From: Sphaerodactylus townsendi
Lineage: Eukaryota
Assembly: GCF_021028975.2 (NCBI RefSeq)
Contig: NC_059428.1
Span: 152,892,001 to 152,956,000, forward strand
Direction: 5' to 3'
Length of the DNA stretch: 64,000 nucleotides
Within the stretch, counting starts at the first letter, position 1; each line of letters begins with the position of its first letter. The notes beneath the pieces are model-generated. The model made no database searches. It had not been told where the DNA came from and worked only from the letters and a program-made list of their open reading frames with translations. The translations under genes and the position numbers were made by a program. Shown one piece after another: positions 6,423 to 33,266 of this stretch.

Positions 6423-6733
6423 ATTTGAAGAGATGTCATGTTAGTGAGGGAGCAAGCTTGTTTTCTGAAGGTCCAGCGACTAGGACCAGGAGTCATGGGT
6501 TCAAGGTGAAGGGAAAGCAATTCCATTTAAACATCAGGAAAAACTTTGTGACAGTAAGGGCTGTTCAAAAGTGGAATTCACTACCTCAGAGTGTGGTGGA
6601 GTCTCCTTCTTTGAAGGTTTTTTAACAGAGGCTGGATGGCCATCTGTCAGGAGTGCTTTGATTGTGCGTTCCTGCATTGCAGGGGGTTGGACATGATGGC
6701 CCTTGGGGTCTCTTCCAATTCTGATTCTATTAT
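6423..6733 (+). mobile_element. CR1 LINE 3' end
   Basis: RTRSHGFK...FHLNIRKNFVTVRAVQKWNSLP CR1 ORF2 C-terminus, plus 3' UTR ending attctatt. Confidence 0.85.
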
Positions 6734-7040
6734 TGTGATCAAGTCTGAAAAGGGCATTAATTTTTCCTGGGATTCAGGCTGCCATACCAAAAAGTTCCAC
6801 AGGATGGCGGTAGAAGACCACAAATGCATTTTCACTGATTTGTAAATGGGCTCCACTTGGGGCCAGTTGTGGCAAGATTTCTGCTTGTGTTGCACCCGTT
6901 GAAGCATTAGCTGGGCCTTCTTGTGTGTTGTTGTCTTCAGGGTGACCCCTAGGTTCGCCCCAAAGATTGTAGCCATTTTCAGGATGGCCGTAGTTCCGCT
7001 TTCCTGCACCCTAAACGTGGCCTGTCTACGTGACAAGTGA
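6734..7040. repeat. Local low-copy repeat module, copy 1 (also 9434-9780 and inverted 28918-29065)
   Basis: Shared caagtctgaaaagggcattaatttttcctggg...gtagaagaccacaaat...gaagcattagctgggccttcttgtgtgttgttgtcttcagggtg. Confidence 0.85.
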
Positions 7041-9433
7041 CATGGCAGAACATTTTGAAACCTGGGCAGTGGCTGCGATCGTCTCCTGGTCAGGTTCATT
7101 AGTTGGATCAATGGGAGGGTCTTTGGGGGCAGTTCCATTACATGGTTCTGAAAGGGGGAGGGGGTGGGCTTTGTGATTTGTTCAGTGTCATCCTGAAACC
7201 AAGTACCAGCGATGGGATCTTGTAAGAGACTGTCTGGTTGTGTTGCCAGCACTCCCCAAAAGCACATAGAGTGGCATCCAGAAGGGGTGTGAATGTGGGA
7301 AGCTTCAGGTCTTGTAAGTCATTCAAAGTGGGAGCTTTTACTCCCAGGAAACTGTATCTGGGATTGTAGCCTTAGTGGGTGACATCGCCATAGCATGAAT
7401 CCACTTGTCCAAAGAATAGTGGTTGCACATGGCTGAAGAGGAAGCCAACAGTGTGAACCAGTGCTTTCTTTTGGGGCTACTGTGTGAAGGGTTTCCTGAA
7501 TGTGTGAGTGTGCCTTTATGTCACATCCATGGCTTTACTGTCATCCCCCTGGACTGTTTCATAACAAGACTCTGTGTTCAGGTGATGTCTTTTTTACGAA
7601 ACAGCATCAGGAATAAGAATGTAGACCTCCATTGCCAGACCAAAAGCATAAGGAGCAAAGCGCCCTCCATTATAACCCACCCAATGTCACACAAAACCAC
7701 CCCTGACTACCAGTTCCCAAGGAGGGATGGCACCCCATCAGTCCCACGGTGCAGAGACAGTGCAGCCTGGCCTAAACATCCTCTCTACGTGGCTTCTAGG
7801 TTCTCCCTACCTGACTTCTAGGGGGGCTGCAGTGTCCCCCAAGCATCCTCTCTACGTGGTTTCTAGGTTCCTTTTCTGCTGTCACAGAGTGGGAGAGTCG
7901 AACCTGGGTCTGCCAGAGGCAGGTCTGTGTAACCACAAACATTGTGTTGAACAGATCAGCCAAGTTACCCAGGAGGACTCAGAAACACAGTCTCCTCCGC
8001 TAGTCGGGGAATCATGAGTTGGGTGCCCTGTGTCTGTCCAGGGTTTGTTCAGTTGTGATGAACAGAGGCCTGTGAATGTCATCTGTGCGTGTGTGCACCT
8101 GTGCAGCCGGTGCCTCTGAACATAGCAGTGTGATCCCTCCAAGAGGGAAGGGATAGGTCCTTTTGTGGGCAGTTAATGCAGTGGTGGACAATGTCATGGG
8201 GGGCTTCAGCGTGTGGATACTGTGGGCAAGGGAGAGATGGAAATGTGTGCCACGTGTGCATCCGATGGGCATTTTGGAGAAACTCCAGAAGACCCCTTTT
8301 ATCAGGTAATGCTAGGCAGAGGTGTCTACTTGAGTGTCAGGGAAGTGAATGGGCTTCAATGTGGGTGAGAGGTGACTGGAGCCACCTGGCTAGTCAGGTG
8401 TGCTCTCAATAGCGTCAAAGTGAACTTTTAATAGGTGAACTGTTAACCTCATAGGTGGACTTTTAACCTCATGTGCTGCAGCCCCAGAGTAATGTTGGTT
8501 GCGCTTGTGTGTAGTGTGAGGCGTTGTGATCTCATGTGTGGAATGTGGCAGTGGGAAAAGCATGCAATCTCCCGAACGAGGGCATCACACAGCAGGGTGT
8601 GACAATGTTGTCTTGTGAACATGGCATTCCTCCTGGCAGAAGTGGTGGTCCTTTCTGTACCCCGCATTGAGGAGAAGTGTGCATTTTGAGGAAAAGCTTT
8701 TTCATTGTTTGGGGTTGCGCTGATGAGGGGCATGAAGCAGGCAGGGAGCCCTCCATTATACCCCACGTCACACCACACCACCCCTGACTAAAAAAAGGAA
8801 AGCTGGGGTTTCTTGTGCGTTTTTGTGGCTGGATGGCCATCTTTCAGGAGTACTTTGATTGTGTGTTCCTTCATTGCAGGGGGTCCGGCTTGATAGTCAT
8901 TGGGGTCTCTTCCAACTCCGATTCTATGATTCTATGGTGATATCTTCACTGGTGATTAATCCTGGGATTGTCACCCGAAATATCCAGGTTCCCTCAAGAT
9001 CTCCTCACAGCCGAACCACGGAACACAGACCAGTCCCGTTTCTGGTGCTCCCCCCCCCCCCCCCCCATCACGGGATTTTCCTGGACATGCTTGTACAGTA
9101 TATGCACCTTTTTGAAAAAAACACTCCAATGGGAGCTAATAGGAGATGGGGGCTACACATTTGAGGGTCCACAACATTCGCCCCCATGAACCAAACTTCA
9201 CCAAACCTGGGTGGTATCATCAGATGGTATCTCCCAAAGATACTCTGAAATTTTGGTGCTGCTAGCTTAACAATTGCACCCCTGACAGCAGGCACCCCCC
9301 CCCCAAGGGGCAGGCCTAGATGTCTTCACTAGAAACATACTACAGTAAGGATGTTGGAACCTGGATGAAAAGGTGCTGATTCTTTTGAAACTTGGTTGTA
9401 TCTAGATTAAATTTTCAGTGGGAATTCGGCCTA

Positions 9434-9915
9434 TGATTGTGAGCAAGTCAGAAAAAAGCATTAATTTTTCCTGGGCTGCCATACAGAAAACATCCACACG
9501 ATGGCAGTAGAAGACCACAAATGAATTTTCACTGATTTTGTTTCTCTCTACCTGGCTTCTGGGTTGCTGATTTGTAAATGAGCTGCATTTGGAGCCAAGG
9601 GTGGCAAGATTGTGTTTGTGTTGCACCTGTGAAGCATTAGCTGGGCCTTCTTGTGTGTTGTTGTCTTCAGGGTGGCTCCTAAAATTCGCCCCAAAGTTTG
9701 TAGCTATTCTCAGAATGGCCATAGTCCTGCCTTTCTGCTCCCTAAATGTGACCTGTGTATGTGATGACTGACTGGGTAACACTAGGTGTCCTTTGCCAGA
9801 ACTGAAGTATAAGGAGCAAAGCGCCCTCCATTATACCCCCACATCACGCCCCAACATCACAACACATCACCCCTGACTAAAAACAAAAAGCTGGGCTTTC
9901 TTGTGCATTTTTGTG
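9434..9915. repeat. Local low-copy repeat, copy 2, joined to a second module (also at 7645-7710 and 8745-8830)
   Basis: Aligns by eye to 6734-7040, then to aaggagcaaagcgccctccattata...cacccctgact. Confidence 0.8.
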
Positions 9916-10508
9916 TTATGTTTTGGCAGAAGAAAAAGCCAGCAGGGGAAGAGAAGAGAGTCAGGGTCCCATGTCCTGGCCAGGCGTCATGGGACAATCA
10001 AACCAGAAATGGGCTGATGGTGACATGCACATTTTCAAACAGAGGAGTAACAGACCTCTGGTCTTCTTTGGGGCCATCCATCTCAAAAGTGAAGAATCCT
10101 GTCAGCATTGTCGTTGACATGTAGCTTGGCTTGTTTGCAGGAGCTTACAGCGCCGTTTTATGTGTGACATGTAGCCTGGCCAACTATAACATACACAACC
10201 AGCTTAGTTTTTTACTTCCAGAGAGCGCTTAAGGGACTTTATTTCAAAGAAAGACCCCTGGATTGGGGCAGTCCATGATGCCATCTACTTGCGAGGCCCC
10301 GGGCTCAGCCTGCTTATGTGCATTAGGCTGAATTAGTCACATACTCTCAGCCTACCTTACAAGGTTGTTTTGAGGAGAACGATGCTTTGCAGGGGAGTGG
10401 GATATAAATAAAATAAATGACTACATTTATGTGGAAGGGAGGGGACCAGAGTTATTTCTATGTGGGGTGCAGTTTGCAAAGCCTTTCCCCCTGGTTCTGG
10501 ACACTCAC

Positions 10509-10630
10509 CAGATGACCTCCCTGCCCCGCACCCCCAAGAAGCAACAGAGCCACGCCAAGGAGAACGCGGCCAGATCCCCCTGCCTGTGGCTCAGCTGTAC
10601 GGGCAAGACGCACTCCGTGGAGGCCGCCAT
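10509..10630 (-). pseudogene. Orphan first coding exon encoding a signal-peptide-like N-terminus (possibly NAGPA)
   Basis: AATATGGCGG start, MAASTECVLPVQLSHRQGDLAAFSLAWLCCFLGVRGREVI(W), strong donor TG|gtgagt (phase 2). No second exon found downstream. Confidence 0.45.
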
Positions 10631-10649: not shown

Positions 10650-13436
10650 AACTCTGTCACTCGCCAGCCCAGCTCTGGCACTCGCGGCGCCCTCTTGTGG
10701 TCAGGGGAGGCGTGGCACGTTTTGGCACCCAGTATCCTTTGCAAAGTTTTTGCATTTTGTAGGATCAGAGGAGCAGGTCCTAAAATGCGGGACAGCATCG
10801 CCCCTGGAAGCCTCTTGGGGGTCGGGGGATCCGGGAGGGCCAGTCGATTTGCATGGGTCAGACATGACTATGCAACAGAAGTTGCACAGGACACACGTGG
10901 CCGGGGTTTCCCACGATCGCGGGAATGGGACGACAGCTGCTGGGAGTTGCAGGAGCGTTGCGGACTAGGCCTTTTCAATGGGGCTACTTCGGAGAAAGCG
11001 CCTGAGCTCTATTTGTTTAGTTGTAGTTGTTAGAGGCAATTTTAGACTATCTCTAGTTGTGTGTCTGACTGCCAGTAAATAAATATTCAATTTAGTTTGA
11101 ATCAGTTGGTCCCTGTTGCTTTTTCTGTTTCAAAGGAATAACACCTGTGTATACATAGGCAAAAGATCCCTTGTTTCTCAGGCTGGAGACTCTGTAACAT
11201 ACTGACCCCCCCTCCCCCTGGGTTCAGTTCAAGTAAAATGGCAGGTAAATAGAAGCAGAGGTGGTTGGAATCCCTTCAGTCCTTCTACATCGATTTTCAT
11301 AAAACGCAAGGAGACTAAAATGACTTCATACAGTATCTAGAAGGGGCACTGAAGTCTCCGTGTGCTGGGGAAGTTAAATAGGTGAGTTTTCTCATGATGA
11401 CAAAAGGCAGGATGTCTACGCTTCCTTTGCCATTCTCCCCACTCCCCAACTTGGTATTTGTTTTCACTAAGGAATCATGTTTGTTGCCTGTGGAGCTGTA
11501 ATTTCCAAGAAGATGTGCAGCTGTCTCACCACAAAACCCTTTTGTTCTCTTGTTTCCTTTGTATGGTTCCTCTTTCCTCTCACAGCCTTTCTTCCGCCTA
11601 CCTTTATCTGATAATAACAGACCTGGGATGAAAAAGGATTGGGTATCTTCTACACTGGAGATAGAGCAGATCACCTCCACTTGTTCCCACCACCAGCATG
11701 TCCCAGCGAAGACCACCCCGCCTATCTCAGTATGGCCGGCCAAGCTCATTGAAGCCGATCCTCATCCTAGGAGTTACCTTGCAGTAGAAGAGCTCTTGCT
11801 CTTTTGAAGTCTTTCAAATAATAGGCAGTTTCCCTGTCATTAACACCTAATACCCCCAAGCCAGTCTTGCTGTCTTTGAATTTTGGACAACAGGAAGGCA
11901 CAGAGACATTTCCCATCCCATAGGGAGCTACAGGGATGAGGCTAACTCTTTTTTAATGAAGAGCAAGAGAGATTCTAAGGACAGGGCCAAAGCAAGATCC
12001 CGCCAGGAGCTCCGCCAGTCTTCACTGCTGCCAGATGATCAGCTAAAACTAATAAACAAGGTATTCTCTCCCCCCTCCCTTTTCAGTCCCTCCTGTAACA
12101 AAGTTGATGTCACATCTGAAGGAAGACCTACGGGCACACTTTTCAGCCGTTCCCAGCTGCTTTTGGCTGCCTGGCTAGCAAGTTGTTGAATCTGGATTCA
12201 TTACCCAGAGGGAAGCACAGCCAGTTATTCTCTGTTTGTCTGAGCGATTTTGCCAAAATTGGTAAGTGTCTGCCACTGCTTGAGCCAGCTATGAATAGCT
12301 GAAGCAAGTAAATAAGAAGTCCTTAGTGAATCCCACTGTGGAGGTTTCACAGCAAGTTTGGGAAACAACTGAATAAGAGTCCTCAGCTGACAAGACATAG
12401 GAATGCAGCAGCCTGGACCCTTGTTTTGTGTGGGGCTGTCCAATTAGTCATTGTTAGAACTGTAAAGGGCACCGCGTATCATCATCCATTCCTGCACAGC
12501 AATAGGAAACCTACTGAAGCAGTTTGGTTTTCAACATTGTTTTCTAGTAAGTACAAGTCATGAAAGAGACTTTCTCTCTAACAGTGGACAGGGCCTGTCC
12601 TCCCCTAGGATGCAGGGCGAAACCAAGAGGCCGTGGCTCCCACATCTCACAGCAATAAGTGTGAATCACAAGTTCAGGGGGAGGACAGAGAGTCCCGTGG
12701 CACCTCAAAGACTGACAAATGTCCCAACGGGCCCTGGATCACAAAAAAATGTGTTCGACCATGGTTATTTTGGTTGCAGGAGAGTAGCGTAGCTACCCCC
12801 TCTGAACTACCCATATGCTTCAGTTGCTCAACCAACCAGGACTATTGTGGTGGGGCTTCATGTGTTTAATTTCTTCACTAGTTACATAACTATACAGTAG
12901 CAGCAAAAAACAAAAAAAGAGTTACATAATTTCAGCAAAAAATAAGGGACCCAAAGCAATGTTAAAAACTCAGATACTACCTGAAATATAATAAAAATGT
13001 GCTCTGGGTCCGGGCATAGTGGGAGTTGGTCTTGTTTGTTTTCACTTAAAATGTGCATATTTTTTTAAAAGGGAAGCATAGAAATGCTTTTGTATAGAGG
13101 GGAAGTGCTTAAGATCTGAAGAACATGACCCAAAAGAAAGACAAGTACCCTTGTAGGTACAATGAGCCAATGCAGAGAACGGGCTCCCCATTTTGGCACT
13201 GCACTGCTAGGCACCCCAAGGGTTGGCAGAATGGGTATAGGCATCGCTGTCTTAAAACAGAGCTCCACCCAATCACTATGGGTTGGTCAGGCAACCCCCC
13301 CTCCGCCCTCAGCCTGATGATGACTGACATCTCTACAAGGAAGGGGATGTTGACAGCAGTTCAACATTGCTTAAGGAGGCAAGGAGGGTAAAAATGGATG
13401 GGGTTTATAGCATTCTGGAAGGTGAGACTTGGGTCA

Positions 13437-13731: not shown

Positions 13732-14499
13732 GATTATTTACTTCCTCCCCTAGAATTCCTCTTGCCCCTGCACCATTGGTACATTTCTGAGTTCTAAAAT
13801 ACAAGATCACTGTGAAAGAAAAAAATAATTATAACTAATTCTAAGTATAGATTAGATTTGGTCAAGGAGTCAAAGCAGGTGTTTTTCAAAGTAGCCAAGC
13901 ATTATCCCATGATTACGGAAGTGAGATGTCTGATCACCTGATCCTGAAGTCTTTTAGAGGCAACAATTACTAAATGCTCTTGGGCATCTTGCCCTCTCAA
14001 CCAAGTCAAAAAATCCCTGATTCCTGCCTTCCGTTGGTTCTTTGGCTGACTTATCTTTTTGTAAAAAAAATATTTATTTGTTTATTTACTTGGTTGATTT
14101 TCACCCTGCTTTCCTCCACCATAGTGGACTCACTTCCAACTGCTACTTCCAACAGGCAATAAGTTTTACAACATTTATAATAAAATGCATGTCTTGTCTT
14201 CTGAGGGGAGAGTTCATTCCAGATACAGAATGAACATGACTGGCCCCAGGCCAAGAAGTTCGCCACCACTGCCCTCTCCCTATGGCCTGTCATTAAAAAA
14301 GCAGCACCAGGGCCAGCTCAGGACATGGCAAGGCTGCCCCCCCCTCAAGACCCCACTTCTCCCTCCGTGCGCATCCCCTTGCCAACCTCCAGGTCCCCTC
14401 CACCCTCCCCTTCCAACGACCAGGAACTCCCCCCCCCCCCTCACCGCCAACCCCGCAAAGCGGGTGCCAACGCGCAGAAACGACTCCAGCCTTATGCAA

Positions 14500-14832
14500 G
14501 GACGAATTGCCGGAAGTTAAGATTGCACGGCACTCTGCTTGTTTTCCTACCCCTTGGGTGAAGATGCCCGGTGCACCCCCATAAACGGCCCCTGCGGAAA
14601 CTCCCGCCACCCCCTCGGGTGTTCCGCTCAGCACGGCTGCTCCGCTCATCGCTTTGCTGGGGGCTAAATCCGGAAAATAGGCAGCTAACACAGGCCGAGC
14701 CGTATTTCTGAATGAAATCTGGAGCTCTGCGAACTCTCTTTGTTTCCGCTTTGGAAGGAGCGGAAGTGTCCCCACCCGGACAATATAGTGGACGGACCGC
14801 CCTTACTCAAAGCGCAGGCGCAAGTCAAGGAG
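14500..14832 (+). promoter_or_regulatory. MRPS34: CpG-rich promoter and probable non-coding exon 1 of MRPS34
   Basis: ETS/GABP CGGAAGT motifs at ~14510 and ~14761, NRF1 GCGCAGGCGCA 14812-14822, donor AG|gtgaga at 14832/14833. Confidence 0.6.
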
Positions 14833-15350: not shown

Positions 15351-15843
15351 ACACACACACACCCCAATTTAAGCCCTTCTGTGCCCAGTGAGATCCGTGG
15401 ACTTTGAAAGGTTCAGTTCTGTTTGGGAGTGCCCTGTTAGCCTCTGTTTCCAGTGGTCACTCTTTGCTTGGGAAGCAAAAGGAAATTGAAAAATAAACGT
15501 ATATGGAAGTTTGCTGGGGTAACCTTGGGACAGTCACACACTGCTTAGCCTACCTCACAGGGCTGGCCTTGCATTGTTGTCCTCTTTCGTATTTGAAGCC
15601 CTTTGTCTGTTGGATGTCTTGTACTGTGCGATTACATGTTTCCTCTTTCTATAGTCCGTAATCTGTCTTGCGCTTCAGTAAGGTGAGCTATAAATGAATA
15701 AAAGTACAGGAGACTCATGTAAGCTACTCTGTGCCACTTTTTATGAGAATCAGGGTGTATAAATGAGGCTAAATAAGAGGGCCACAGAGACTGTATTTCC
15801 CAGCATCAGTATTACTTTTCCTGTTGTTGTTTCATAGACAGCC

Positions 15844-16161
15844 ATGGCTCGCAAGAAACTTTACCGCCCCATCGCAGCCATGGCCAAGAAGATCCGAGAG
15901 TACAGGGCTTTGAAAAACCAACCCCGAGACTCACAGCGCTTTGCCCTGGACTACGAGACCATGACCCGTCCCTTTACAGGCAAGCGTCTGCCTGCACTGG
16001 CTTGGGAGGATGTGAGGAACGAAAATCGGCTCTTCACCCTGCTGTGCCGGCTGCATCATTTTGGCATCAGGCGCATGGTGACGCGCAAATCTTGGGTGTG
16101 GGAATTTGATGAGCCGTGCTACTGGGTCATCACCAGCATAAAAGTGGATTATACCGCTGAG
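15844..16161 (+). CDS. MRPS34: MRPS34 coding exon 1 (mitochondrial ribosomal protein mS34)
   Basis: MARKKLYRPIAAMAKKIREYRALK...EPCYWVITSIKVDYTAE|gtgagt, preceded by acceptor ttcatag at 15831-15837. Confidence 0.95.
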
Positions 16162-16869
16162 GTGAGTGCTATTGGCCAGCAGGAAATGGAGAAAGGTGGA
16201 AATAAAAGGTCCTTTTCTTCTGTTTGCTCCACCGTCTCTTCTACATTTGGGGAGAGTGCCTGGACTTTTAGAATGGTGGGGGCCTCTTCAAGATGTGCAT
16301 TTAATCCTTAGCATCTCCAGTAACAGCTTCCATTGGAGACTGCCCCCCCAACCCCCCGGGCAGAAATGTTTGCAATCAAGAGTGAATATTACTAACACTG
16401 ACAGACTGCTGCTTTGACATGTGAGAAAGCAACGTCACATACTTTCCACGATTCAAGAGAGGATTTGAACCGTGGTATCTCCATCCACATCTGACTGCTG
16501 CAGAACTAGCCCTCTGCATTAGCCCTGGAAAGAAAATACACAACTGTTTCTTTTACTTATTTATTGGCACAGCTGATAGCCTGCCTTTCCGGCTGAGGCT
16601 CCAGGTGGATAACCCAGGGTCATTACAAACCGTAAGAACAGACATCCAGTAAGCAATGTAATAGGGTTGGGATTGCAAAAATCTAAGACCAAGCCAAAAC
16701 AAAACATGACATAACATCACATGTTGAACAATGCAGAAATTACATAGTAGGATAATACATGCATCAATCAACAGACAATAGATGCTATATAAAGTTGTAC
16801 AGTCTAGACTTCCTGTCCTTTTAGCAAAGCGTCCTTCTGAACCATTTCATTACAGTACAGTGTGAAAAA

Positions 16870-17515
16870 CCACTGCAGAATAATTCAGTTTTGCCTACTT
16901 TGATGAAAACCAGGAGAGCAGGAGCTTTCCTGACTTCCTTAAGCACGCCATTCGGTAGGATAGAGGGCCATAGTGGAGAATGCCACTGAACGGGCAGTTG
17001 TTGATTTTGCCTATTTGTGGGATGGCACTGTCAGGAGGCCATGCTCAGGTGAGTACAGCATAGGAGGCCAGGTGGTCTAACAGTTTTGAGGGGCCACGCC
17101 CATGAAGGGCTTTGTATGTGGAAGCCAGTATGTTGAACTGAACCTGGTCACTGATAAAACAGCCATCGGCCTGGCTGCGGAATGGGAGTAATATGCATGC
17201 TCCTCCTGGCTTCTGGTAAAAGCTAAGCTGCGGCATTCTGCATCAGCTGGAATTTCCAAGTTGACTTTGAGTAGCGACTGACCTAGTAGCCTCATCTTGA
17301 TGTCTCCGTAGCATGGATCCAGATGAGCCAATTCGGGAGAGGGGCTGGAAGTTGGAAGGACGCGTTTTCTGAAGCTGCGTTAACTTGTTTTTCCAGCTGT
17401 CATGATGAATCCAGTATGTCCCCTAGTTTCTTAACCAAGCCCGCAGCGTCCAGCTGAACCCTGTCAGAGTCGGGAGGCGCGGTGTCATTTGAGATCTCTA
17501 CCTTCCTAACCAGCA
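16870..17515 (-). mobile_element. L2 LINE fragment
   Basis: Minus-strand QVQFNILASTYKALHGRGP..LLDHL, typical of L2 ORF2 C-terminus; boundaries approximate. Confidence 0.65.
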
Positions 17516-17537
17516 TTACTTCTGTGCTCTGTTACAG

Positions 17538-17580
17538 AATATGGATCACGGAAAAGCATGGGGCTATCTAACATTCAGAG
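17538..17580 (+). CDS. MRPS34: MRPS34 coding exon 2
   Basis: gttacag|AAT ATG GAT CAC...TTC AGA G|gtaagg = NMDHGKAWGYLTFR(G), 43 nt. Confidence 0.93.
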
Positions 17581-17964
17581 GTAAGGAAAACACAAACAAC
17601 CCTCCTATGGTCACGGAGAAAATTCCATGAAGAAACTTAAGCTAGAGGACCATCATTTTCCAGTCAGTGGGATTCTCCTTGATCTGAAAAGCTGGAGAAT
17701 TTTGCATTTTTGTCTAGCATTGCCCACATATTTCCAAGTGCATTAGAAGGGCTAGAAACGTGTTTTTAACTATACAAAACTGCATTTTGTGCCAAGTACG
17801 AAACTTTGCACGCGTGTGTGTAGTATACATGTCCTTTGGTTTTTTTACTCAAGTTGAATTACAGCACCTTTCAGCTAGCACAGGAATGTGCATAGTAATC
17901 AGTAGAAATCACCTCTCAGCCATGTTAGTTGTGGGAGCTGATCTTGCTGGGATGTTGTTGTTGT

Positions 17965-19790
17965 TTTTAGCAAGCCTTTATTGGCATAGACAACAGTACA
18001 ACAATAATAAAAAACGGATTAAAAAGCATATACAATACAGGAAATAAATGTTAGGCCGAAGGAAATCTGCTGGCGTTTAGTAATTTCCAGGAGAAAGTCT
18101 GCCACTATCATACAGAGAGAAGGATCAGGATTGTCCAACAAGTAGTGTAATCTAATTAAATCGGAGATCGGGTAAATGTAAAGGAGTAAGATTCACATAA
18201 TTGGATCTGATTTCCTTGAATCTGAGACAGTGTAGTAATTGGTGGGCCAGAGATTCAACTGAGCCATCATTACATGGGCACAATCTTTTAGCCTTTTCTT
18301 GCTTATTAAATCTGCCATATAACAAGGCAGAAGGCATAACATTAAACCTGGCGAGCATTATGGCTCTCCTTTGAGCAGGGTTTATTAAGCAATACAGGTA
18401 GTGTGCCAAGTGGCCCTGTTCAAATGGGAGAGAAAAATACAGGGGGGAACACGTTTTCTTGGCTGCGGTGATTAGGGTAGAGAACTCTCTATCCAACAGT
18501 TGACCTTTTAATTTTCTATAAGCTTCTGAATAGGACAAGGGACAAAGTGAATCCACTGACAGTCCAACAGAGGCCATTTTTTCTTCAATTATGGAAAACC
18601 AGGGGTTGGAATGGGTGTCAGAGAGCAGACAGTGGACCAGGGAATTACAGTCCGAGAGAAAATGAATTTGCAGCCAGAATCTAAAAGCCCTCAGCCAAGC
18701 GGCTGATTCCAAGGAGTTTTGACCTAACTCCAGACAAAGGGCTGCATAGGGCACGCAATTTGGGAGTCCAGTTATCTTATGAAAAAAATTGGATTGAAGA
18801 GAATTCAAGGAGTGGTTAATAGCTTGAATCCAAATTGGGACTCCATAAAGCAATCTCAAGGTGACTTTGGCATTGAAAAACTTGAGGGCAGGAGGGATAA
18901 AGGAGTGGCCAGTGCTGTAAAAGAAATGTAGTAATGCTGACATACTGTTAGATGTAGCTAGGAGAGCGGCCTTCCTCTGGGTTGCCCATGAAAGATTAAA
19001 GGAGAATGAGAGGCCAAGGTATGTATAGCACTTAACCTGTTCAATTTGGGTGCTTTTCATTGCCCATGTGATCTTCTTAAAAGCGCCTAGAGAAGACCAA
19101 TACCTTGGTTTTTTCATAATTAATTGTCAGTCTATTGGATTCACAGTAATCCACACAGCGCTTCATTAAGCGTCTGAGGCCAACTCTGGATCGAGAGAGG
19201 ACAGCGTCATCTGCATAGAGCAGAATTGATACATGGGATGTACCCAGTTTTGGGGCATGGCTGTTCACTGCTGAGAGAGCAGAGGGGAGGTCACTTAAGA
19301 AAAGATTGAAAAGAGTGGGGGCCAGGACGCAGCCCTGTTTGACCCCTTTGGAAATTGGAATACTGTCTGTCAAAAGGCCTTCGTGGGAACACTTGATCCG
19401 GCAACTGGTATTTGTGTGCAGTTGCCTAATTAAGAACAAGAGTCTGGCATCAATGTTGAGGGCAGCCAGTTTTGCCCAGAGAAGTTCTCTTGGCACAGAG
19501 TTAAAGGCAGCCCTTAAAATCTATAATTTGTTTGTTATCTGCATTGATTGAGTATTTACTGGCTAGGTGTAATAGCACCAGGGCGTGGTCCAGAGGAGAT
19601 TTCCCCTTGCGAAAGCCTATTTGTTCAGCCCCCACTGCACCAGAGTGGGAAAGCCACAGCTGAAGTTTCTTCAGTAACAATTTAGCATAAATCTTCCCTA
19701 TCACTGAGAGGAGGCTGATGGGGTGGAAGTTGGTGGGTTCTGAATGACTTCCTTTTTTATGGATGGGAAACACAGTCGCAGACAGCCACG
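17965..19790 (-). mobile_element. Non-LTR retrotransposon, RTE-X-like, 5'-truncated and frameshifted RT ORF
   Basis: ORFs 19501-19851, 19077-19496 and 18152-19117 carry RT motifs (PISLLS, GVKQGCVLAPTLFNLF, LLYADD, YTYLG) and a C-terminal Cys/His motif; AATAAA plus CAA-repeat tail on minus strand. Confidence 0.85.
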
Positions 19791-20123: not shown

Positions 20124-20585
20124 GGATCTCGGGGATCTTTTCTCCAATCTTTCTATTTCAGTTTGTTTTCTAGAAAATTACCCATAATGGAAAGGACATC
20201 TTGCCAAATTTCAGTTTTGCTTAGTGTGTAGAATGCTGTCATGAATCCATGTGGATCGGTGTGAATCCATCTGGATATGCTGGACTGCCCGTACAGGCCA
20301 AATGCATTTGAGACCCAAATCCTAAATGTGTTCATTGTTTGGAAAAGACCCACTGATTTGAGTGAAACTGGTTTCCTGACCAGCTGTGTTCAGCAGTGCA
20401 TTGATAAGAACTTTATCTCACAGTAGCTAAAACAGTTTTGGCAACTGCTAAGAAATTCCATCTGTTTTTAATTGGTTTAGGAGGGTTAATTATAACCTTA
20501 AAATATAATAAAATACTTCCATAACTTATAGCTTTGTTTTGCTTGGATCTTGTTTGATAACTATTACATTACCTAGGTGCCTGGG

Positions 20586-21403: not shown

Positions 21404-22199
21404 GCGGATCCAGCAGCTGGAAGACGAGGTGAAGAGAGTCCAGAACAACAACACCCTGCGAAAGTAAATTTGGGTTTTGTTTTCCTTGAAAGCTGGTTTG
21501 TGGGGGTCCTCCCAGCCTCCCCTGTCCTCAGGTGGGCTCCCCTCAAAGACCTTGTTATAGAACTTAGAACATTCAGATAAATATAACCCTAACCCATACC
21601 CTCAGCGGCTGATCTCTCCAAAGGCCCGGTGGTATCTTTCAAAGGGGGGGAACCCTTTCCCTTTCCATCACCTCCCTCTTTCCTGTGGATTCAGAATAAC
21701 TTACTCATGGTGTGGGTATTACACCATTCCACCCTCTGACAGATTAATTTGTTTTGCAAACCTTACTTTTTAATTTTTAAAAAATGGTGCACATGACAAC
21801 ACGTACCGGGATCTAACTTCAATGCAAAAGAGAGCTGTATATAGCGATCCCTTGACACAATTAGAAATAAGTAATAGTGAGACAGAGTTCAACATTAAAA
21901 TATTGAAAAACTTTAATAGGCATTTCTCCCTTACACCTTGCGGGTCCTTTTTCTGAGAATGTTATTTAAGTCATGAAGATTCTGCTGCCTAATGGTTTAG
22001 CGGCCTCTACACAGCACTCCAAAGAAAAGATGGCTCTTTCACATTACCAGTATTTAATGACATCTTCATTGGGAACAATTATTTATTACCTGTTGGTAAA
22101 TAAACGCCCCACTTCCTCATTTTACAAAATGGGTTATATGTAGTCTCAGTCTAAATATAATTATTTTTCTCAACTACAAGATACACCTACAAACCTCCA

Positions 22200-22750
22200 G
22201 GACATTCAACTGTAATAATTCATGCAAAAAAGCATGGGAAGCATGCGGATTATATTGACCTCTGAAAAAAGCCACGAATACTAACCCAAAAGATACTAAG
22301 AGATGAATTTCCTATGTTACCAGAGTCTTATTTGCTGGGTATATTCCAAGACAACATTCCACCCAAAAACATTAACCTGTTTTTATATCTTTCCACCACT
22401 GCAAGAATTCAAATAGCAAAAAAGTGGAAAAGCAAAGTGAAACCGAGTTGCAAGGACTGGATCAGTTTATTGGAAGACTAGAACCACGGACAGAATATCG
22501 ACATATCAGAAGGATCTGCCAAAAAAGAAGATTTGAAATGATGTGGGAACCATTTAATCAATACTGTAAAAAAATTTGAAACAAAGATATAATTAAAAAC
22601 AGTAAAGTGTAAAGGAAATACTGAAATCAAAATTTACCGTTTTGGTTCAAATCTCCACTAATTAAATTAATTAAATTAATTATAATTTAAACATGCTGGA
22701 ATAACAAATATAGTTGAATATATGTATTAATTTTGCGATGTGACTATGTT
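22200..22750 (+). mobile_element. L1/Tx1-like LINE 3' fragment
   Basis: Degraded PESYLLGIF...TTARIQIAKKWKSKVKP...W ORF2 C-terminal signature followed by an AT-rich tail. Confidence 0.6.
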
Positions 22751-22764
22751 AAACTAAAGTTCCA

Positions 22765-23575
22765 AACTGCGTCCCTTATGCAGCCCTGTGTTTAGAACTG
22801 GGGCAAAACACCCTGGAACATAGAGCCTGGCTTAGAGCCTTTAGATTTTGGCTCCGCCTTCACTACCTGCCATCTGAACGCTCCCTTGTCTCATTGACAT
22901 TACAGGACACGCAGGCTAACCCCTGGTTTTCTCTAATCGAGAGAAAGATTATTTCCATCGGCCTGCCTATTGAAACACTCTACCTAATGTCCTATTCAGA
23001 AGCGTACAATAGGCTCAGAGATCGGCTTTTAGATCTAGAATTTGCAAATTTGCATCTAGCAGCCAAACGAACCTGCTCCCCAACACAACTCCTAATTCCA
23101 TTTGAGCAGAGACGTGTGGCCTATTATCTCCATACCTTAACGAACCCACGGGCAAGGAGAGCCCTTACCATTGCATGTTTTAACGCTATGCCCTCTGCCC
23201 TGTTAAAGGGTAGGTGCAGCAATTTAGATAAATCCAGAAGGTCATGCAGTTGCAAACTTAATGTGGTTGAAACCCTGACTCACCAACTCTTGCACTGCAC
23301 CAGATTTGATAACATCAGATCTAAATATACCAACTTACATTTTTTCTTCCAATCTGGGCTGCCTGATCTGATTAGGTTATCTCTGTTGTTAAACAACTCG
23401 GACCCCAGTCTTTGTGAAGAGATCGCCAATTTCATTGCGGAGATAGTTGAGAGTTCCCAGTAGAACGTATTTGTTGTGCTCCCCGTGGGGCCTTTATCTA
23501 TCATGTATCCATGCAATTGTTCCTGAATTATGTAACTTTTTCTGTTTATGCCAATAAAAGCTTATGTATGTAAAA
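22765..23575 (+). mobile_element. RTE-X-like LINE 3' fragment (same family as 17965-19790)
   Basis: PNCVPYAALCLELGQN...FNAMPSALL..R...ETLTHQLLHC; ends gccaataaaagcttatgtatgt. Confidence 0.8.
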
Positions 23576-23959
23576 AAACCTAAAGATTAATAATACATAT
23601 ATGAAGTAAACTTATTGTATGAAAATAGAAGCTCAACAAATATAACTCTTAGAGGCAATTTATAGTTAAATTTTGCACCCCCACCAACATATCCTTCTCC
23701 AGTTCCTCTTACACAACATCCCCCGTTTGCTTTCACCCCAAGGACCATATCACAACCCAGAGCCTTCTAACTTGAGCACATGCAACTGCCGAGTCATATC
23801 TCTACACATCCCACAATCACTGCCACAAGATGTTCCCCCTCACCCACACCTGAGCAAGAGGCACACCTTCATTCACCTTGTCAGACACGCTCAGATGTCA
23901 GATCTCAGATGTCAGACACGCTCAGTCAGCAGCCGACTGACTAAGGAGGCCTTCTAGAG

Positions 23960-24180: not shown

Positions 24181-25060
24181 TTCCAGAGGAACATCCGGGA
24201 TTCTCCCACCATTGAGGAACCAGCCCTCCTGCGGAATAAACAAAGGAGCAGAGAAGATTAGTTTCATTCTTGGCCTTCCTCCACTCAGGACTCATCCTCT
24301 GCACCATCCCAAGAGATTGACCAGACCCCAGGCAGGCGTCCCACACCCCACTCCACCCACCCACCCACCTCGCCAGGTTAGGGTATACGTGCGAACACTG
24401 CAGCCTTCCAGATGCTATGGATCATAGTTATCATCCCCTGCCAGCATGATGCTGGCAGGGGGTGATGGGAACTGTAGTCCATAACATCTGGAGGGCCGGG
24501 AGCTCGAGACCTGTGGGTTAGGGCTACTACAGGACTAGCACATTAATCACTCTCCACATCCGCGCCTGTGCGCGCGAACACAAAAGCGCGTGCACATAGG
24601 ATCCTGCCACCGAGAGCGAGGACCAAAAGTTTGGTTCTGGGTCGCGGGAACCGCCCCCCATGCGCACGCGCTGATGGTGGCAAATGTGCCAGGGCCGAAT
24701 GGAAGGAAGGCAGGGCCAAAGGGGCCCGAGCCACGCAAGGGAAAGGGGAAGCCGCACCATAGATGGGAAGGGGGAAAACGGACCCGCATTCACGGGTTGC
24801 AATTTTGATTTATATCCCCGCAGGAGGCGGGCAACCAGTTAAACACTGAAGACACACAACACTGAAGACACACAACACAGCATGGAAGGCAACGTTATGC
24901 ACTGCAAGTCAGCAAGCCTCAAATGTTCAACTACAATACAGCCTGTCTAGCGAATGCATCAGCCTTACACACACACCCCCCGCCCGCCCCAAAGCAAAAT
25001 CCGGTCCGACGACCGCACACCCCACGCACACACACGCAGCCACACGCCCGCCCGGCTCAC

Positions 25061-25560
25061 CGGCCTCTCCCGCAGCACAGCCACCAGGCGCCGCCCGTCG
25101 ACTCAGGCCCCGCTCCTTGCCGCCGCCGCTCCCCTGCCTCGGCCCGGACGACTCGCCGCAGGAACCGGCTGCCTGCACAGAGAGAGAGAGAGAGACCGAG
25201 TGAGACGGCAGTCCCCCGCCCAGCTCCCGCCCTCCTGGCACCAGCCCTAGGCCGCCTGTCGGAGACGACTGAGAGAGCCTCGGCCCAATGCCGCCCCCCC
25301 GGAAGGCCGGGCGGCCAGAGTCCCCGCCGCGACGACGCCCTATCCGGCCAGCCAGCCCAACAGAAGCTCCGCCGCCACTCATAGGCTACACGCTGAGCAC
25401 TTCCGCCTTTACGCCCCCCCATAACCCCGCCCCTCCGCCGCAGCCAATCAAGAGCGGCGGCCCGACACCCCGACCAATCGACGCGCTCGTCAGCCGCGGC
25501 CATTGGCTGGGCCGCCTCACCCGGAAGACGGCGGGGGGCGTGCAGTTACACGTGCGGCTG
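25061..25560 (-). promoter_or_regulatory. Orphan CpG-island promoter with candidate non-coding first exon (~25380-25061)
   Basis: Dense CpG, CCAAT boxes at ~25444, ~25474 and ~25502 (reverse), GC box ~25425, ETS-like CTTCCG ~25400; minus-strand donor CG|gtgagc at 25061/25060. Confidence 0.55.
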
Positions 25561-26744
25561 GGCGGCGGAGGGGAGCGGTGACCTTCTGACCCCGGGACCC
25601 CACCGGCGAGAAGCGGATTCACCTGGGCCGCCCCCGAGACAACTGCGGGCCCGGCCGCTTATTGCACACGACCCTCAAGTGACATCTGCAGGATCCCCAA
25701 CAGCTGCGGGAGTCACCAGACCGCCTCCTCTCCCTGATTCGACACTGCGGGGTCAACAACAGGTCAGCCCTCCTGGGCCCACCTGATCCCATTCCCCTCC
25801 CTGGCACGAGGGCATCCAGCAGGGCATCATCCCCCAAACCACCTCCCTCCTCACATTTGACAGGGCCACAAACCACCCTCCACAAGGGCGGGCACCTCAC
25901 GGGGGAAATTGGCTCCTCCAGCGCACCTTCAGATTTACATTGCTTATATTACGTTGTACCACCGTCTCCTTGTTGGTTTATTGCACGCTGCCCCTGAGCC
26001 TTTCGGGGGTCGGGTGGTCTATTACATTTAATAAATAATAATAATAATGCCCACTGGCCATTCTTTCAGTACGCCACACTGCGACTGCAACATCAGAGGA
26101 ATAGCAGAATTTGGATTTACGCCCCCTCCCCTTCTTACCATTTCTTCAGCGCTCAGGAGGGTAAACACCACCCCCACCTCCTTCACAGGTGCCCTCAGCA
26201 CGAAGTCTGGAGACAACTGCTCCCCTTTCCACCACCCACCCCGGCGGAGGAATAACACCCCTGAACACGGCCTGCACACTGTCAGCTTTAATCAGAGGCT
26301 GAGTGGTCTCTGTGTCATACAGGTTAACACAAGAGACACAGCGGTTACATGCATGCAAGGTACAACTTCCACAGTCAAGACAACTCGTGAGAGATTGCTT
26401 TCACTGGACACTTCACTGAGCAGCGACAGTGTGGACAGCTCAGTGTCAACGCCCTGGAGACATGTTCACAAAGGTCACACAGGTCTCCTTGGTCTCTCAC
26501 GCCTTCAAGATTCCTTCCCTCCACCCCAATGGCACGCATCCTCCGTGGCTGATGGCAGTCCAATACCCTGGCCGGCAAGAGTCCCATGTTTCTTCCCAGA
26601 CGGGACAGGGCTTGGTCGTCCACTTCACCAAAAGGGCACCCAGACGCTTCACTCTGAAACCCTGGCCCTTTTCCGGAGAAATGCCAGCTTCGACTGGCCT
26701 GAAGGCAGATCCTTTGCCCGGCAGGTCTTTCGGGAACCCGGCAC

Positions 26745-27091
26745 CTACGTCCTCCGGCATCGCTTGTGCCGGCACACCTCAGCTTCTGAACCGCACGAGC
26801 TCTCTGACTCGCTACTCGGCCAGGGGGAGGAAGAGGGAGACGCCAAGCCACAGTTCATGTTCAGCACCCAACCCAGTTTGTTCTGCAGGACTTGCTTCAG
26901 TCCCGGAGGGAGAGGCTAGGCCTCGAGTGTGTCTGTGGAATCTGGGAGCAGCTGGCGGAGGCGGTGGCAGCACAGGTACTGCAAGGAGGTGTGGCTGGCA
27001 CAGGACCGGATCACTTTCATGCTGCTCTTGGCAGCCGTAGAACACACCATGGGGTAGAATCCCTTGTCCTGTAGCTTTGTGGCAGCAACTC
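26745..27091 (-). pseudogene. SPSB3: SPSB3 terminal exon with in-frame TAG in the SOCS box
   Basis: tgcag|GA GTT GCT = (G)[75 protein letters not shown]...CRHKRCRRT*; premature stop 26918-26916; ATTAAA 26292-26287. Confidence 0.85.
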
Positions 27092-28483: not shown

Positions 28484-28609
28484 CAATGCACTTCCTGTTT
28501 TTGAAGAAAGTCAGAGTCCCGTGCCAGGTATCCAGATGCACCCCGATAATGGAGCCTTGTCCAAACCGCGTGGAGAAATTGACTCTGTCACCTTTGTGGT
28601 GGAGGAGCC
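28484..28609 (-). pseudogene. SPSB3: SPSB3 penultimate exon (SPRY domain C-terminal part); upstream exons absent
   Basis: cctgcag|GG CTC CTC CAC CAC AAA...AAG TGC ATT G|gtaagc = (G)[41 protein letters not shown](G), 126 nt. Confidence 0.85.
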
Positions 28610-28659: not shown

Positions 28660-28915
28660 CCATGTTTTCTGCTGCCTCGCAGACTGGGACACGGAGTCAT
28701 GGGTTCAAGGTGCAGGAAAAGAGATGCCACCTAAACATTAGCAAGAACTTCCTGACTGTCAGGGCTGTTTGATGGTGGGATTCACTGCCTCGGAGAGTGG
28801 TGGAGTCTCCTTCTTTGGAGGTTTCTAAACGGGCTGGATGAACATTTGTCCAGAGTGCTTTGATTGTGTGTTCCTCCATGGCAGGGGGTTGGACTGGATG
28901 GCCCTTGGGGTCTCT
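28660..28915 (+). mobile_element. CR1 LINE 3' fragment
   Basis: TRSHGFKVQEKR.HLNISKNFLTVRAV plus CR1 3' UTR. Confidence 0.8.
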
Positions 28916-29065
28916 CTGCCCACTTGGGTTCAGGTTTGCTACCTTGAGAAACAAAATTAGTGAAATTGGATTTGTGGTCTACTACTGCCATCGTGTGGAC
29001 ATTTTCAGTATGGAAGCTTGAATCCCAGGAAAAATTAATGCCCTTTCCAGATTTGCTCACAATCA

Positions 29066-29280
29066 TAGAATCACAGAATCATAGAGATGGGAAATATCCC
29101 AAGGGGCATCAAGTCCACCCTCCTGCAGTGCAGGAACACACAATCAAAGCACTCCTGACAGATGGTCATCCAGCCTCTGTTAAAAAACCTCCAAAGGAGG
29201 AGATTCCACCCCACTCCAAGGTAGTGCATCCCACTTTTGAACAGCCCTTACTGTCAGGAGGTTTCTCCTGATGTTTAGGT
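29066..29280 (-). mobile_element. CR1 LINE 3' end
   Basis: Reverse-complement CR1 3' UTR with atcatagaatcacagaatcataga tail. Confidence 0.8.
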
Positions 29281-29897
29281 GAAACACTGCTCAGTTTCTC
29301 CACTAATTGCTTCATTTTTTTTTGGTGGGACTAAGTTGAGCAGACTGCAAGATCTCTGAGAATGCAACTGCCCATTTACCACATAAGAAACTCTCCATTG
29401 GAGGGAACAACAGCTAATTCTGTCAGAGAGCCGAAGGCTCTTCCAAAGAATCAGTCCACCGGCAGAAAACGGTATCTATGTTCATCTGCCAATGGGGAGG
29501 AAAAGAAACGCGCTAGGCTTCCCCGAGAAATATTCCTGCGGTTCTTCGGAAGGACTGTTTGTTCTCTCTGTGTTTGTAACACGTGTAACATGTGTTTCTC
29601 AACTTGTTTCACCACTATTAAAAATTAATATTAACAGCAGGCACAAGCTTTTTGCAGACGGGGAAAATTGGACGGATGGTGACTAGCTGATCAGCTTCAT
29701 GCACAGCCAGCTTCTTACAGCAATCTTGTAGAACTGTCCCCCCACCTCCAGAGCTCAACAACTGATGACTGCATTGTCTGCATGAACCACGTCACAAACA
29801 ACACTCCCTACCCCTCCTGTTTGTTTGTTTTCCCATCTGGTCCTCCTGTTCTTCTTCTATAAGAGGGCTGGAAAAGGGGACAACAACAGGTACTTAC

Positions 29898-30046
29898 CCC
29901 ACATGCATAAACATGTAGGTGAGAAACCGCCAGGCATGGGCTCTTTGCCGTGGGTGATAGACCAGGGGGCTCTTCATATACTCCGGATGGTACATCTGCA
30001 ATGCCCATTTGTTCAGGCGAGCGCCGTAGCAGAGGAAAACGATTAT
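29898..30046 (-). pseudogene. RHBDL1: Isolated RHBDL1 internal exon
   Basis: ccttag|ATA ATC GTT...CAT GTG GG|gtaagt = [49 protein letters not shown](G), 149 nt; no other rhomboid exons found. Confidence 0.82.
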
Positions 30047-30185
30047 CTAAGGCAAGGAGAACCGGGGGGGTGGGGTGGGGGGGCGGACACAGGCAGGCAA
30101 AGCCGGCAGACATCTTAAGCTCCCAAAGCACAACTGGATCTTTTCACCAAGGAATAGAACGTGCTCAAACCCCTTCCCCAAAGTG

Positions 30186-31265
30186 CTGGGCCACCTCACC
30201 TGAAAGGCGACGGGGGGGGGGGGGCTACAGTCACACGTGCGGATGGGGGCAGTGAACGTCTGACCCTGGGACCCCACTGGCACCAGCAAGAAGTAGACCC
30301 ACCTGGGCCACCCCCGAGACACCTGCAGGCCCGGCCGCTTATTGCACACCACCCTCAACTAATATCTTCAGGATCCCCCATGGCTGTGGGAGTCACAAGA
30401 CGGGCTCCTCTCCATAATGCGGCCCTGGGGGCAACAGGTCAGTCCTCTTGGCCCAACCTATCCCATTCCCCGTCCTCCAAGGATGCTGCCCTGGCACCAG
30501 GGCATACAGGGCGTCCCCTGTATTTGAAGGGCCTCAAACCACCCTCCACAAGGCTGGGCACCTCCCAGGGGAAACCATCTCTTCCCATGCCCACTCGCCA
30601 TTCTTTCAATACCCACCGCTGTGACTGCAACACCAGAGTAGGGAAGCCCCCAGAAGACACCCCAGTCCCAGGGGAGGCCTCCTACCATCCGCTGGGGGTT
30701 TCACAGTCTCTCTATTCCAATAGGTTTACAACGCTGGCTGTCGCTGACATCCTTCATGAGGATTCTGTCCCCCTCCAATTGTCTGGGAAGGAAAGTTCCC
30801 ATTCCTCAACATTTGTGGCTTTCTTGGCAAAGGATCTAAAGCAGGAAAAGTACACCTTCGCACAATTCCCTCGGCATTCCCCAAGAAAGCCATCTTCCCA
30901 ATGCACACTGTCCCCAAACAACCACAGGAAACACTTGCGAGGGGCCCACTCATTACTTTCAACCTTCTCATTTCCACCCTCTACACAACTCTCAATATAT
31001 CTCTGCTCCTTCACTACAGACATGTGCTGGGTGGGTGACCAATGCCCAGCAAACATACACCACACATACACCAATAACACATTTAGGAGAAGAGTTTGGA
31101 TTTACAGCCCCCCTTTCTCTCCTGTAAGGAGACTCACACAGCTAACACATTCGTCTTCCCTTCCTCTCCCCACAACAGACACTTTGTGAGGCAGGTGGGG
31201 CTGAGGGAGTTCTGACAGAACTGTGACTAGCCCAAGGTCACCCAACAGGTTTCATGTGGAGGAGT
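30186..31265. repeat. Second, internally deleted copy of the 25508-28010 segment (SPSB3 3' flank plus last intron)
   Basis: 30186-30570 matches 25508-25900, 30587-30638 matches 26047-26098, 30694-31265 matches 27428-28010 including the same SINE. Confidence 0.85.
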
Positions 31266-31769: not shown

Positions 31770-31950
31770 AGGAATTTTTTTCCCCAATAAGAATTGTTTG
31801 GCAGTGGAACTGGCTGGCTGGTGAATGGGGTGAGCTTCCTCTGACTGGCTGCCTTCAAGCAGCGGCTGCGTGAACACTTGTCATGGATGCGGGCTGATCG
31901 TGCATTGAGCAGGGGGTTGGATTCGATGGTCTGTATGGCCCCCTTCCACC
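31770..31950 (+). mobile_element. CR1 LINE 3' fragment (different subfamily)
   Basis: cagtggaac...gcattgagcagggggttggattcgatggtctgtatggccccttcca. Confidence 0.7.
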
Positions 31951-32346
31951 TCTCTGGCTTTAATAGCCCAGTGGTGAGACAGTGGTGCAAAGATGGAACC
32001 AATCTTTGCCTAAGCAAAGATGCACTGCTAAATAGACTCTACGCAGCCTAAACTGAATATTAACTTAACCAAGTCAATTGGACAAATGTAATCCAAGGAA
32101 GTGGCCAATTCCAAAAAGGCATGCAGCCTGAAAACTAAAATATACACTAAATTCTTCACCTAAATTCCCAAGAAGCCGCTCAGCCGCAAGCTGTTGTAAT
32201 GCAAAGCAAAACACTCCACAAGTGTCCAGGGGTCAGCGAATTCAGCCCTCTCGTTCAGACCTCCAGCTTCTCAAAAATGGGGTGGGGGAAACATTTTGAA
32301 TGGTGAAATAAAAAAAGGGGGGGAAGACACAGAGGAACGACATTAC

Positions 32347-32529
32347 AGAGCAAAATTACAGGGCTGGATTTAAACAAACACCAGAACCAACTCTTAAGAT
32401 GCACCCCCTGCCCCGCGCCTGCACCAAAAAGGAGGGAGGAGCTAAACACAGAGGAAATGACGGGGGTGGGGGTGCATCAGAGTTGGTCCTGGTGTTTGTT
32501 TAAGCCCACTCCCTGTAATTTTGCTCTGG
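32347..32529. repeat. Long inverted repeat (~60-bp arms)
   Basis: cagagcaaaattacaggg...gatgcacccc and ggggtgcatc...ccctgtaattttgctctg. Confidence 0.8.
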
Positions 32530-33266
32530 CCTTTACCAGTTCATAACAAGAGAAGGGGAGAATTGGGCATCTTCAAAAACATTTTAGGCACAAACTTCCA
32601 GGCTTCCTGCTCCCTTAGCTGAAGAAAAAACACTTTGGGGTGAAATTGGAGGGAAATGAAGGGACATCCTTCCCCCCGCCACGCCCCACCCCACCCAGCC
32701 CAGGTGTTCTCCCTTTCTCACTTTAGAGGCTCAATTAATTACAGATAATTCATTGATGACACTTTTGTTCATAAATGTGAACTCATATCTTCCTTTGAAA
32801 TTTGCTGGGAAAAGGTCTATGTTGTTTTCTTGTGGGATACGCAAGGGGGCGTTGGGAAGAGGAGGAAGAGAGTCTTGGACTTAGAGGCTCAGGGGTTATA
32901 CACAAGGGAGCAGAGAATTGGACTTAAGTATTGACAGTATAGTAGACACTAGAGAGGTTTGGAAGAGAGATTTGGAATTACCTTCCCAAGGTATCTACCA
33001 CAGGTTTGCATACATATTCACAACCGATAAATCACACAAGGCAAACAATCCTTTTTATTCATTAAAAAAAACATAAGATACAGAGAGATTCCCAAGGTAC
33101 CATTACAAGATACCGTCTCAATACTATGACGCTACAAAAAAAATCCCACAAATATAAAGCACGGTACTCATTCCTTCACACCAGAAGAGCTTCTTCTAAG
33201 CGTAGAGTTCAGCTTTGCATGGAAGGGAACTTCAGCCCGGGAGCACGATGGTCTCTGCAGGCCACC

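Follow-up and report, generated by a model that had tools for sequence, protein, structure and literature searches.

The window considered here is a 64,000-nucleotide stretch of the genome of the gecko Sphaerodactylus townsendi (contig NC_059428.1, positions 152,892,001 to 152,956,000 of the forward strand), and its subject is the ~27-kb interval between the genes WFIKKN1 and METTL26, which holds pieces of five other genes: NAGPA, MRPS34 (a complete copy), SMG1, SPSB3 and RHBDL1. This interval is quite probably an interspersed, intrachromosomal segmental-duplication block that was put together in several steps.

Four of the pieces (MRPS34, SPSB3, RHBDL1 and NAGPA) retain introns, AG/GT ends and the non-coding sequence beside them, which excludes retroposition for these four genes. 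A processed retrocopy was also considered and rejected, given that MRPS34 retains three introns and SPSB3 one. An intact parent was seen elsewhere on the same chromosome for MRPS34 and for NAGPA, which means that the window pieces of these two genes are copies and not halves of broken genes; the pieces of SPSB3, RHBDL1, NAGPA and SMG1 have the look of DNA copies in decay. With regard to size, a segmental duplication extends over at least 1 kb and is present at more than one site (PMC2566985), and the MRPS34 unit is of this kind. With regard to the >90% identity asked of such duplications, translated proxies of the window unit and another copy of it on the chromosome (described below as the third copy) give about 96% for non-coding and 99% for coding sequence, and two copies internal to the interval (A and B, also described below) are 91% identical within an intron and 85% in the promoter-side part.

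The original prediction had listed an orphan first exon, an intact MRPS34, an orphan CpG promoter, the last two exons of SPSB3, one RHBDL1 exon and a second, deleted copy of the SPSB3 region, and all of them are present. An exon-like piece placed at 21405-21463 is also real, but it is longer (21372-21464) and corresponds to 31 codons of SMG1. The statement that the pieces keep introns and splice sites holds for MRPS34, SPSB3, RHBDL1 and NAGPA and goes too far for the SMG1 piece, which has no recognisable intron. The original prediction did not mention a gap of 198 N directly to the left of the interval. Of the two origins that had been offered, a duplication hub is supported by the intact NAGPA and the two other MRPS34 loci on the same chromosome, by the decayed pieces and by an older internal pair of copies, while a rearrangement breakpoint finds little support, since the NAGPA and MRPS34 originals are intact and the pieces are copies.

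The intact MRPS34 paralog lies at 15838..20520 (+), with a polyA signal at 20507. Its three coding exons (15844-16161, 17538-17580 and 19834-20123) meet at AG/GT junctions and encode 216 amino acids without an internal stop. It is preceded by a CpG promoter and a non-coding first exon (14400..14832, +; the exon ends at 14832) with matches to ETS and NRF1-like motifs. In S. townsendi, a single sequence of 158,922,255 bases carries three annotated MRPS34 loci, and the window copy, identical at 216/216 residues to the “MRPS34-like” proteins XP_048349430-432, represents the locus of these accessions, whose number (three in RefSeq) hints at transcript support. The window copy differs from the canonical S. 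townsendi copy at five of 216 residues; at four of these positions it departs from the residue most often found in homologs, which the canonical copy has. One of the differences is G76R: the glycine is conserved in 119 of the 120 homologs compared (the best 120 of 122 matches), and the window copy has an arginine.

The third MRPS34 copy (XP_048350099) has an accession number near that of the full-length NAGPA (XP_048350096), which is annotated on the same 158,922,255-base sequence. Q26 is common to the window and third copies, and R26 is found in the canonical copy, in Euleptes and in 102/120 homologs. The third-copy models share the 5′ exon with the window and match it from that exon (14767) through the intron to the last exon (19919), over more than 5 kb and up to residue 149, a match that is seen through protein models only. 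One of these models reads through non-coding sequence, where the window and the third copy are unlike at 6 of 63 codons (5 of 62 when the frameshift codon is left out), against 2 of 149 in coding residues 1-149. In 149 codons, about 13 changes would be expected at a neutral divergence of 4%, and 6.6 at 2%; the contrast between coding and non-coding change has a Fisher p of 0.009 or 0.024, according to how the frameshift codon is treated. The slow change of the coding exons suggests purifying selection or gene conversion limited to exons, both of which would fit, and G76R points to a possible recent relaxation of the copy.

Upstream, at 10508..10630 (-), the copy of NAGPA exon 1 keeps its ATG start, a GTGAG donor and CpG-rich upstream sequence. 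Of its 41 amino acids, 37 are identical to S. townsendi NAGPA, which was the sole match among 15 candidates; when the NAGPA protein was compared against the window, the remaining exons gave no match. Four of 40 codons differ between this copy and its parent. In simulations, the divergence of the non-coding sequence and that of NAGPA exon 1 are both near 4%, as a single copying of a unit formed by NAGPA exon 1 and MRPS34 predicts.

The orphan CpG-island promoter occupies 25000..25600 (-) and has a first exon that lacks an ATG (exon end 25061, donor at 25060). It has a GC content of 0.73 and a CpG observed/expected ratio of 0.93, with three ETS, four CCAAT and two GC-box matches, and its CpGs are retained. 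It was compared with the N-terminal extensions seen in the canonical and the third MRPS34 model, and no match was found. Next to it lies SPSB3 copy A, formed by the penultimate exon (28484..28609, -; open, AG/GT, 42/42 to Heteronotia SPSB3) and by the last exon with its 3′ untranslated region (26270..27091, -; ATTAAA at 26292). The last exon contains a premature in-frame TAG at 26916-26918, where 119/119 homologs have leucine, and five of 128 sites that are invariant among geckos are changed in the copy.

The sequence on the promoter side and in the SPSB3 intron is present a second time, as copy B, at 30185..31264. This copy matches 25506-25908, 26047-26098 and 27428-27999, and lacks 26099-27427; the promoter core and the last SPSB3 exon are missing from it, and it starts just beyond the last CCAAT match of the orphan promoter. 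The Kimura two-parameter distance (K2P) between A and B is 0.093 in the intron, which would make copy B the older one. Copy A has 25 CpGs and copy B 11, with 11 CpG decays in B and one in A. This is the pattern to expect if B lost the promoter core and was methylated, with A either younger or still shielded from methylation.

The possibility that these pieces go back to an ancient SPSB3 duplicate present also in Euleptes was considered and rejected. The SPSB3-like protein of Euleptes europaea, which corresponds to the 3′ exons, is identical at 153/153 residues to that species' own SPSB3 and at 134/153 to the window piece; it stems either from a distinct and very recent duplication of that gene end or from a duplication in the assembly. 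In Anolis sagrei, a full-length SPSB3-like protein is annotated on an 84.7-Mb sequence and SPSB3 on a 110.5-Mb sequence, a further squamate SPSB3 duplicate or, again, an assembly duplicate.

The single RHBDL1 exon (29898..30046, -) has an open frame and AG/GT ends. It is 86-90% identical to the top 20 of 87 matches, and six of the seven that were looked up are named rhomboid-related protein 1; five of 50 residues depart from what 19-20 of 20 homologs have at these positions. The divergence per branch is estimated at 4.4% (1.4-10.4) for this exon, 2.9% (0.3-10.4) for the SMG1 piece and 1.7% (0.6-4.1) for SPSB3 copy A, values that suggest two layers, with overlapping intervals. A database model of 113 amino acids named SPSB3 joins 29898-29937, 28484-28609 and 26916-27091, with the RHBDL1 exon out of frame; this RHBDL1-SPSB3 fusion, which the duplication block would explain, looks like spurious annotation. 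The block would likewise account for the three annotated loci of a normally single-copy mitoribosomal gene in S. townsendi.

The junction between SPSB3 and RHBDL1 consists of two opposed repeat 3′ ends with a shared flank (28682..29284). One such end, with a flank of ~110 bp, recurs at the left edge of the interval (6459..6841, +), and we take the repeat to be CR1-like at both places. The composite of repeat and flank at the left edge is 85% identical over 324 bp to the inverted sequence at 28954-29277, and a third copy of the ~110-bp flank lacks the CR1 and has micro-homology to the CR1 tail. The presence of the composite at both sites would fit template switching assisted by repeats, and it would also fit two insertions at the same target.

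This inverted composite brackets 22 kb of the interval, and it is one of the observations that could be explained by one or more inversions with staggered breaks, in which the pieces would be leftovers at reused breakpoints instead of independent insertions. The same explanation would account for the opposite strands of MRPS34 and SPSB3 here (presumably the same strand in human), for the position of ABCA3 after MCRIP2 (presumably not the human order) and for an intact S. townsendi SPSB3 being absent among the best 120 of 378 matches and the listed part of the clusters. However, NAGPA and the canonical MRPS34 are intact elsewhere, both flanking genes are in place, many coincident breaks would be needed for five donors, and the composite could represent two insertions at one micro-homologous target. 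Taken together, these observations make an inversion scar very improbable.

A different possibility is that the pieces were carried by transposons, through Pack-TIR gap filling, Helitron capture or LINE transduction. In the SMG1 piece (21372..21464, +), 31 codons match human residues 1969-1999 at 29 positions (E 3.6e-11), AG and GT adjoin it, and a stop codon follows directly. With 93 bp this piece is small and not far from the median of 224 bp given for Pack-TIR captures in animals, of which 59.8% are intrachromosomal (PMC8277862). The block resembles these elements in its intrachromosomal bias, its exon fragments and the template-switch origin proposed for them, and repeats lie between most of its blocks. 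It differs from them in that no enclosing TIR element was found and most of its blocks are far above the 224-bp median. In addition, among the 25 longest of 29 listed inverted repeat pairs no long one surrounds any gene piece, a search aimed at the surroundings of the SMG1 piece yielded no more than two 12-mer matches at ≤3 mismatches, the MRPS34 block exceeds 5 kb and includes a promoter and introns, and the pieces lie on both strands. Capture could explain the SMG1 piece alone; as the carrier of the pieces in general it is highly improbable.

The third alternative concerns the assembly itself, in which real, diverged pieces could have been wrongly joined or placed if near-identical copies of the MRPS34 region misled an assembly that was built from linked reads and gap-filled with long ones. 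The public S. townsendi assembly, from which the window presumably derives, was built with SuperNova, ARCS, nanopore gap filling and Hi-C (10.1101/2021.08.13.456260). Three similar MRPS34 copies exist on one chromosome, a gap of 198 N (6224..6421) adjoins the interval on its left, and the first exon of WFIKKN1 carries a frameshift, so that errors do exist near the block. On the other side, the sequence is free of gaps from 6422 to 64000, and the MRPS34, NAGPA, SPSB3 and RHBDL1 exons are free of frameshifts. Copies A and B have the promoter-side/SPSB3-intron arrangement in common at 9% divergence, which makes this juxtaposition old, and the pieces are diverged, so a misjoin of true alleles would not yield such differences. 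WFIKKN1 (+, end near 5680) and METTL26 (-, end near 33059) remain tail to tail, as they do in human, where we take them to be immediate neighbours in that orientation. A chimera would, moreover, move the mosaic without removing the duplicated pieces. We consider it improbable.

Sampled sequence words bear on the same question. Of 1050 words from 20100-30099, 39-62% are present in 8/13 read rows (three studies, four organism labels), and without the study that may be the source of the assembly there remain two studies with 40-48% of the words. Two rows have a share of 0.00, and no RNA data set is among those that contain the words, which speaks neither for nor against expression.

Several points weigh against a duplication block as proposed here. 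Its junctions and copy number rest on how the region was assembled, and the quality of the assembly nearby is imperfect: the 198-N gap parts WFIKKN1 from the block directly to the left of the interval, and the frame of WFIKKN1 exon 1 is lost near 1430-1490, where a stop is reached. Parent loci or repeats may have contributed to the word shares. The position of the third MRPS34 copy beside NAGPA is a hint taken from accession numbers, not from coordinates, and the Q26 that it shares with the window copy also occurs in 14/120 homologs. No full-length S. townsendi SPSB3 appears within the matches and clusters mentioned above, no gene match was found for the orphan promoter, and the ~3 kb between NAGPA exon 1 and MRPS34 are likewise without one. 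The set to which the RHBDL1 exon was compared includes no confirmed gecko. Finally, each age estimate is based on 2-5 changes, with overlapping intervals.

If the interval is a segmental-duplication block, the order of events may have been the following. In an older step copy B would have been placed, perhaps together with the RHBDL1 exon. MRPS34 would first have been copied to a site beside NAGPA, and the unit formed by NAGPA exon 1 and MRPS34 would then have been re-copied into the present interval; SPSB3 copy A and its promoter would have arrived after copy B. The MRPS34 copy would have been under partial purifying selection, or converted, and may be relaxing now. All this would amount to copy-and-paste at the DNA level, in several rounds and from sources on the same chromosome. 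The process was probably serial duplicative transposition by break repair, with template switching assisted by repeats as a likely pathway that is carried over from proposals for the duplication blocks of primates. The lineage-specific origin of the block is indicated indirectly, by one MRPS34 match for each other gecko among the best 120 of 122 matches, and this is no test of copy number, because identical copies collapse.

All donor genes of the block are, we assume, orthologs of genes on human 16p, and in chicken these genes are on chromosome 14. Sex linkage is unsupported, as the reported sex chromosomes are syntenic with chicken 18/30/33 and 3. With five donor genes within 20 kb, the interval shows the mosaic of donors that characterises LCR16a-like blocks. 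The account of the primate 16p blocks (LCR16a/NPIP; PMC7419210) describes concatenated mosaics of genes, complete or in part, that keep their introns and come from the same chromosome, apparently through serial copying, with junctions rich in GC and in repeats, and in these respects the gecko block is similar. Pieces of SMG1 also form part of human 16p11.2 duplicons (SMG1P, BOLA2-SMG1; 10.1101/693952). The differences are that the gecko blocks measure 0.1-10 kb within 27 kb, and not tens to hundreds of kb; that no NPIP-like core common to many blocks is apparent; that the junction repeats are CR1/SINE-like and not Alu; that there is no sign of positive selection such as that of the LCR16a core, MRPS34 coding changes being below neutral; and that the origin, in a gecko, is independent.

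Other known structures resemble the block in part. The SPSB3, RHBDL1, NAGPA and SMG1 pieces are like fragments of unprocessed pseudogenes or recent paralogs, and MRPS34 is complete and annotated as “MRPS34-like”; the block differs from these in its five donors within one interval, its two rounds from the SPSB3 region and its retained CpG-island promoters. The tuatara has low-copy segmental duplications (PMC7116210), so this type of duplication is known in lepidosaurs, and the part of that source consulted gives genome-wide fractions only, with no gene-fragment mosaic. A search of titles and abstract openings, with subscription papers largely outside its scope, gave no description of this locus or of duplication mosaics in geckos. 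The block would thus be a known kind of structure that was not found described in these animals.

A tentative and rather unlikely extension is that the MRPS34-SPSB3 locus is a sphaerodactylid core duplicon, which repeatedly seeded mosaics of gene fragments along the segment orthologous to human 16p. The three MRPS34 loci, the two copies of the SPSB3 region in the interval and the partial SPSB3 duplicate in Euleptes are hints of this. If true, the core duplicon would have arisen convergently to primate LCR16, with some donors (SMG1) in common and recurring in Euleptes. Additional functional copies of MRPS34 would have been kept, together with mobile CpG promoters that are able to drive new chimeric transcripts. 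Gene-rich interspersed mosaics are best known in primates, and an Alu burst has been proposed as their cause (PMC7419210). A gecko block of this build without Alu would let one ask whether the instability lies in the region (GC-rich, gene-dense sequence with housekeeping promoters) or in the repeats of primates. By itself, a single locus known from an assembly is of moderate interest.

The rest of the interval is occupied by repeats and by sequence with weak leads. Degenerate, partly duplicated repeat sequence extends over 6727..9950, where 6727-7041 resembles 9431-9772 at 75%. A stretch with three exon-like segments (11100..12300, +) gave weak leads that contradict each other, to WWE (E 0.007) and to an integrase zinc-binding domain (0.88), and comparisons of the segments (11206-12262) with PDB and Atlas gave no firm match. 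Seen as a whole, 10758-12300 starts with a possible LTR-like stretch and continues as degenerate coding-like sequence with the weak integrase zinc-binding lead, and it could be an old retroelement instead of host exons. A LINE fragment with a reverse-transcriptase domain fills part of the last MRPS34 intron (17950..19830, -, ends approximate), and LINE-like insertion(s) at 21600..23600 (+, ends approximate) match it at 75% over 92 bp. In MRPS34 intron 1 there is a tandem duplication of 175 bp (84%; 14988-15341), and upstream of the gene a further splice donor, in the reverse orientation (14438-14520, -), suggests a head-to-head first exon at the MRPS34 promoter.

The Pfam scans covered 294 of 317 stop-to-stop open reading frames (ORFs) of at least 45 aa (the other 23, in two LINE stretches, were omitted), with three LINE ORFs and the SMG1 piece added, and this set gave only MRP-S34, SPRY and RVT_1. 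They also covered 135 of 147 ORFs of 25-44 aa in selected stretches (nine SINE ORFs and three truncated duplicates were dropped), among which the WWE match was the only one, with no match to the EME2, NME3 or NUBP2 families. No further gene piece was identified with confidence in these 294 long and 135 short ORFs.

Regarding the flanks, WFIKKN1 occupies 1310..5680 (+) and METTL26, intact with six exons and 203 aa, 33059..39193 (-). WFIKKN1 exon 2 (3727-5220) and METTL26 have open frames and the expected Pfam domains. The break in WFIKKN1 exon 1 has the appearance of several small insertions and is probably an assembly error; a run of 24 G is found nearby, at 1741. No literature on the WFIKKN1-METTL26 neighbourhood in reptiles was found, the passages of PMC3427181 and PMC13005343 being silent on this gene order. 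The introns of METTL26 contain a direct duplication of 188 bp (88%; 34228-34415 and 34962-35150), one copy on either side of exon 5. A tRNA-Gly(CCC) gene (40172-40242, -), the sole Rfam match in 22000-64000, lies between METTL26 and the gene that we take to be MCRIP2, presumably as in human. Directly after MCRIP2 come 3′ exons of ABCA3 (61377-64000, -), a place that in human we take to belong to WDR90. Near-perfect palindromic elements at 33784-33979, 50672-50829 and 53428-53533 are probably non-autonomous DNA transposons.

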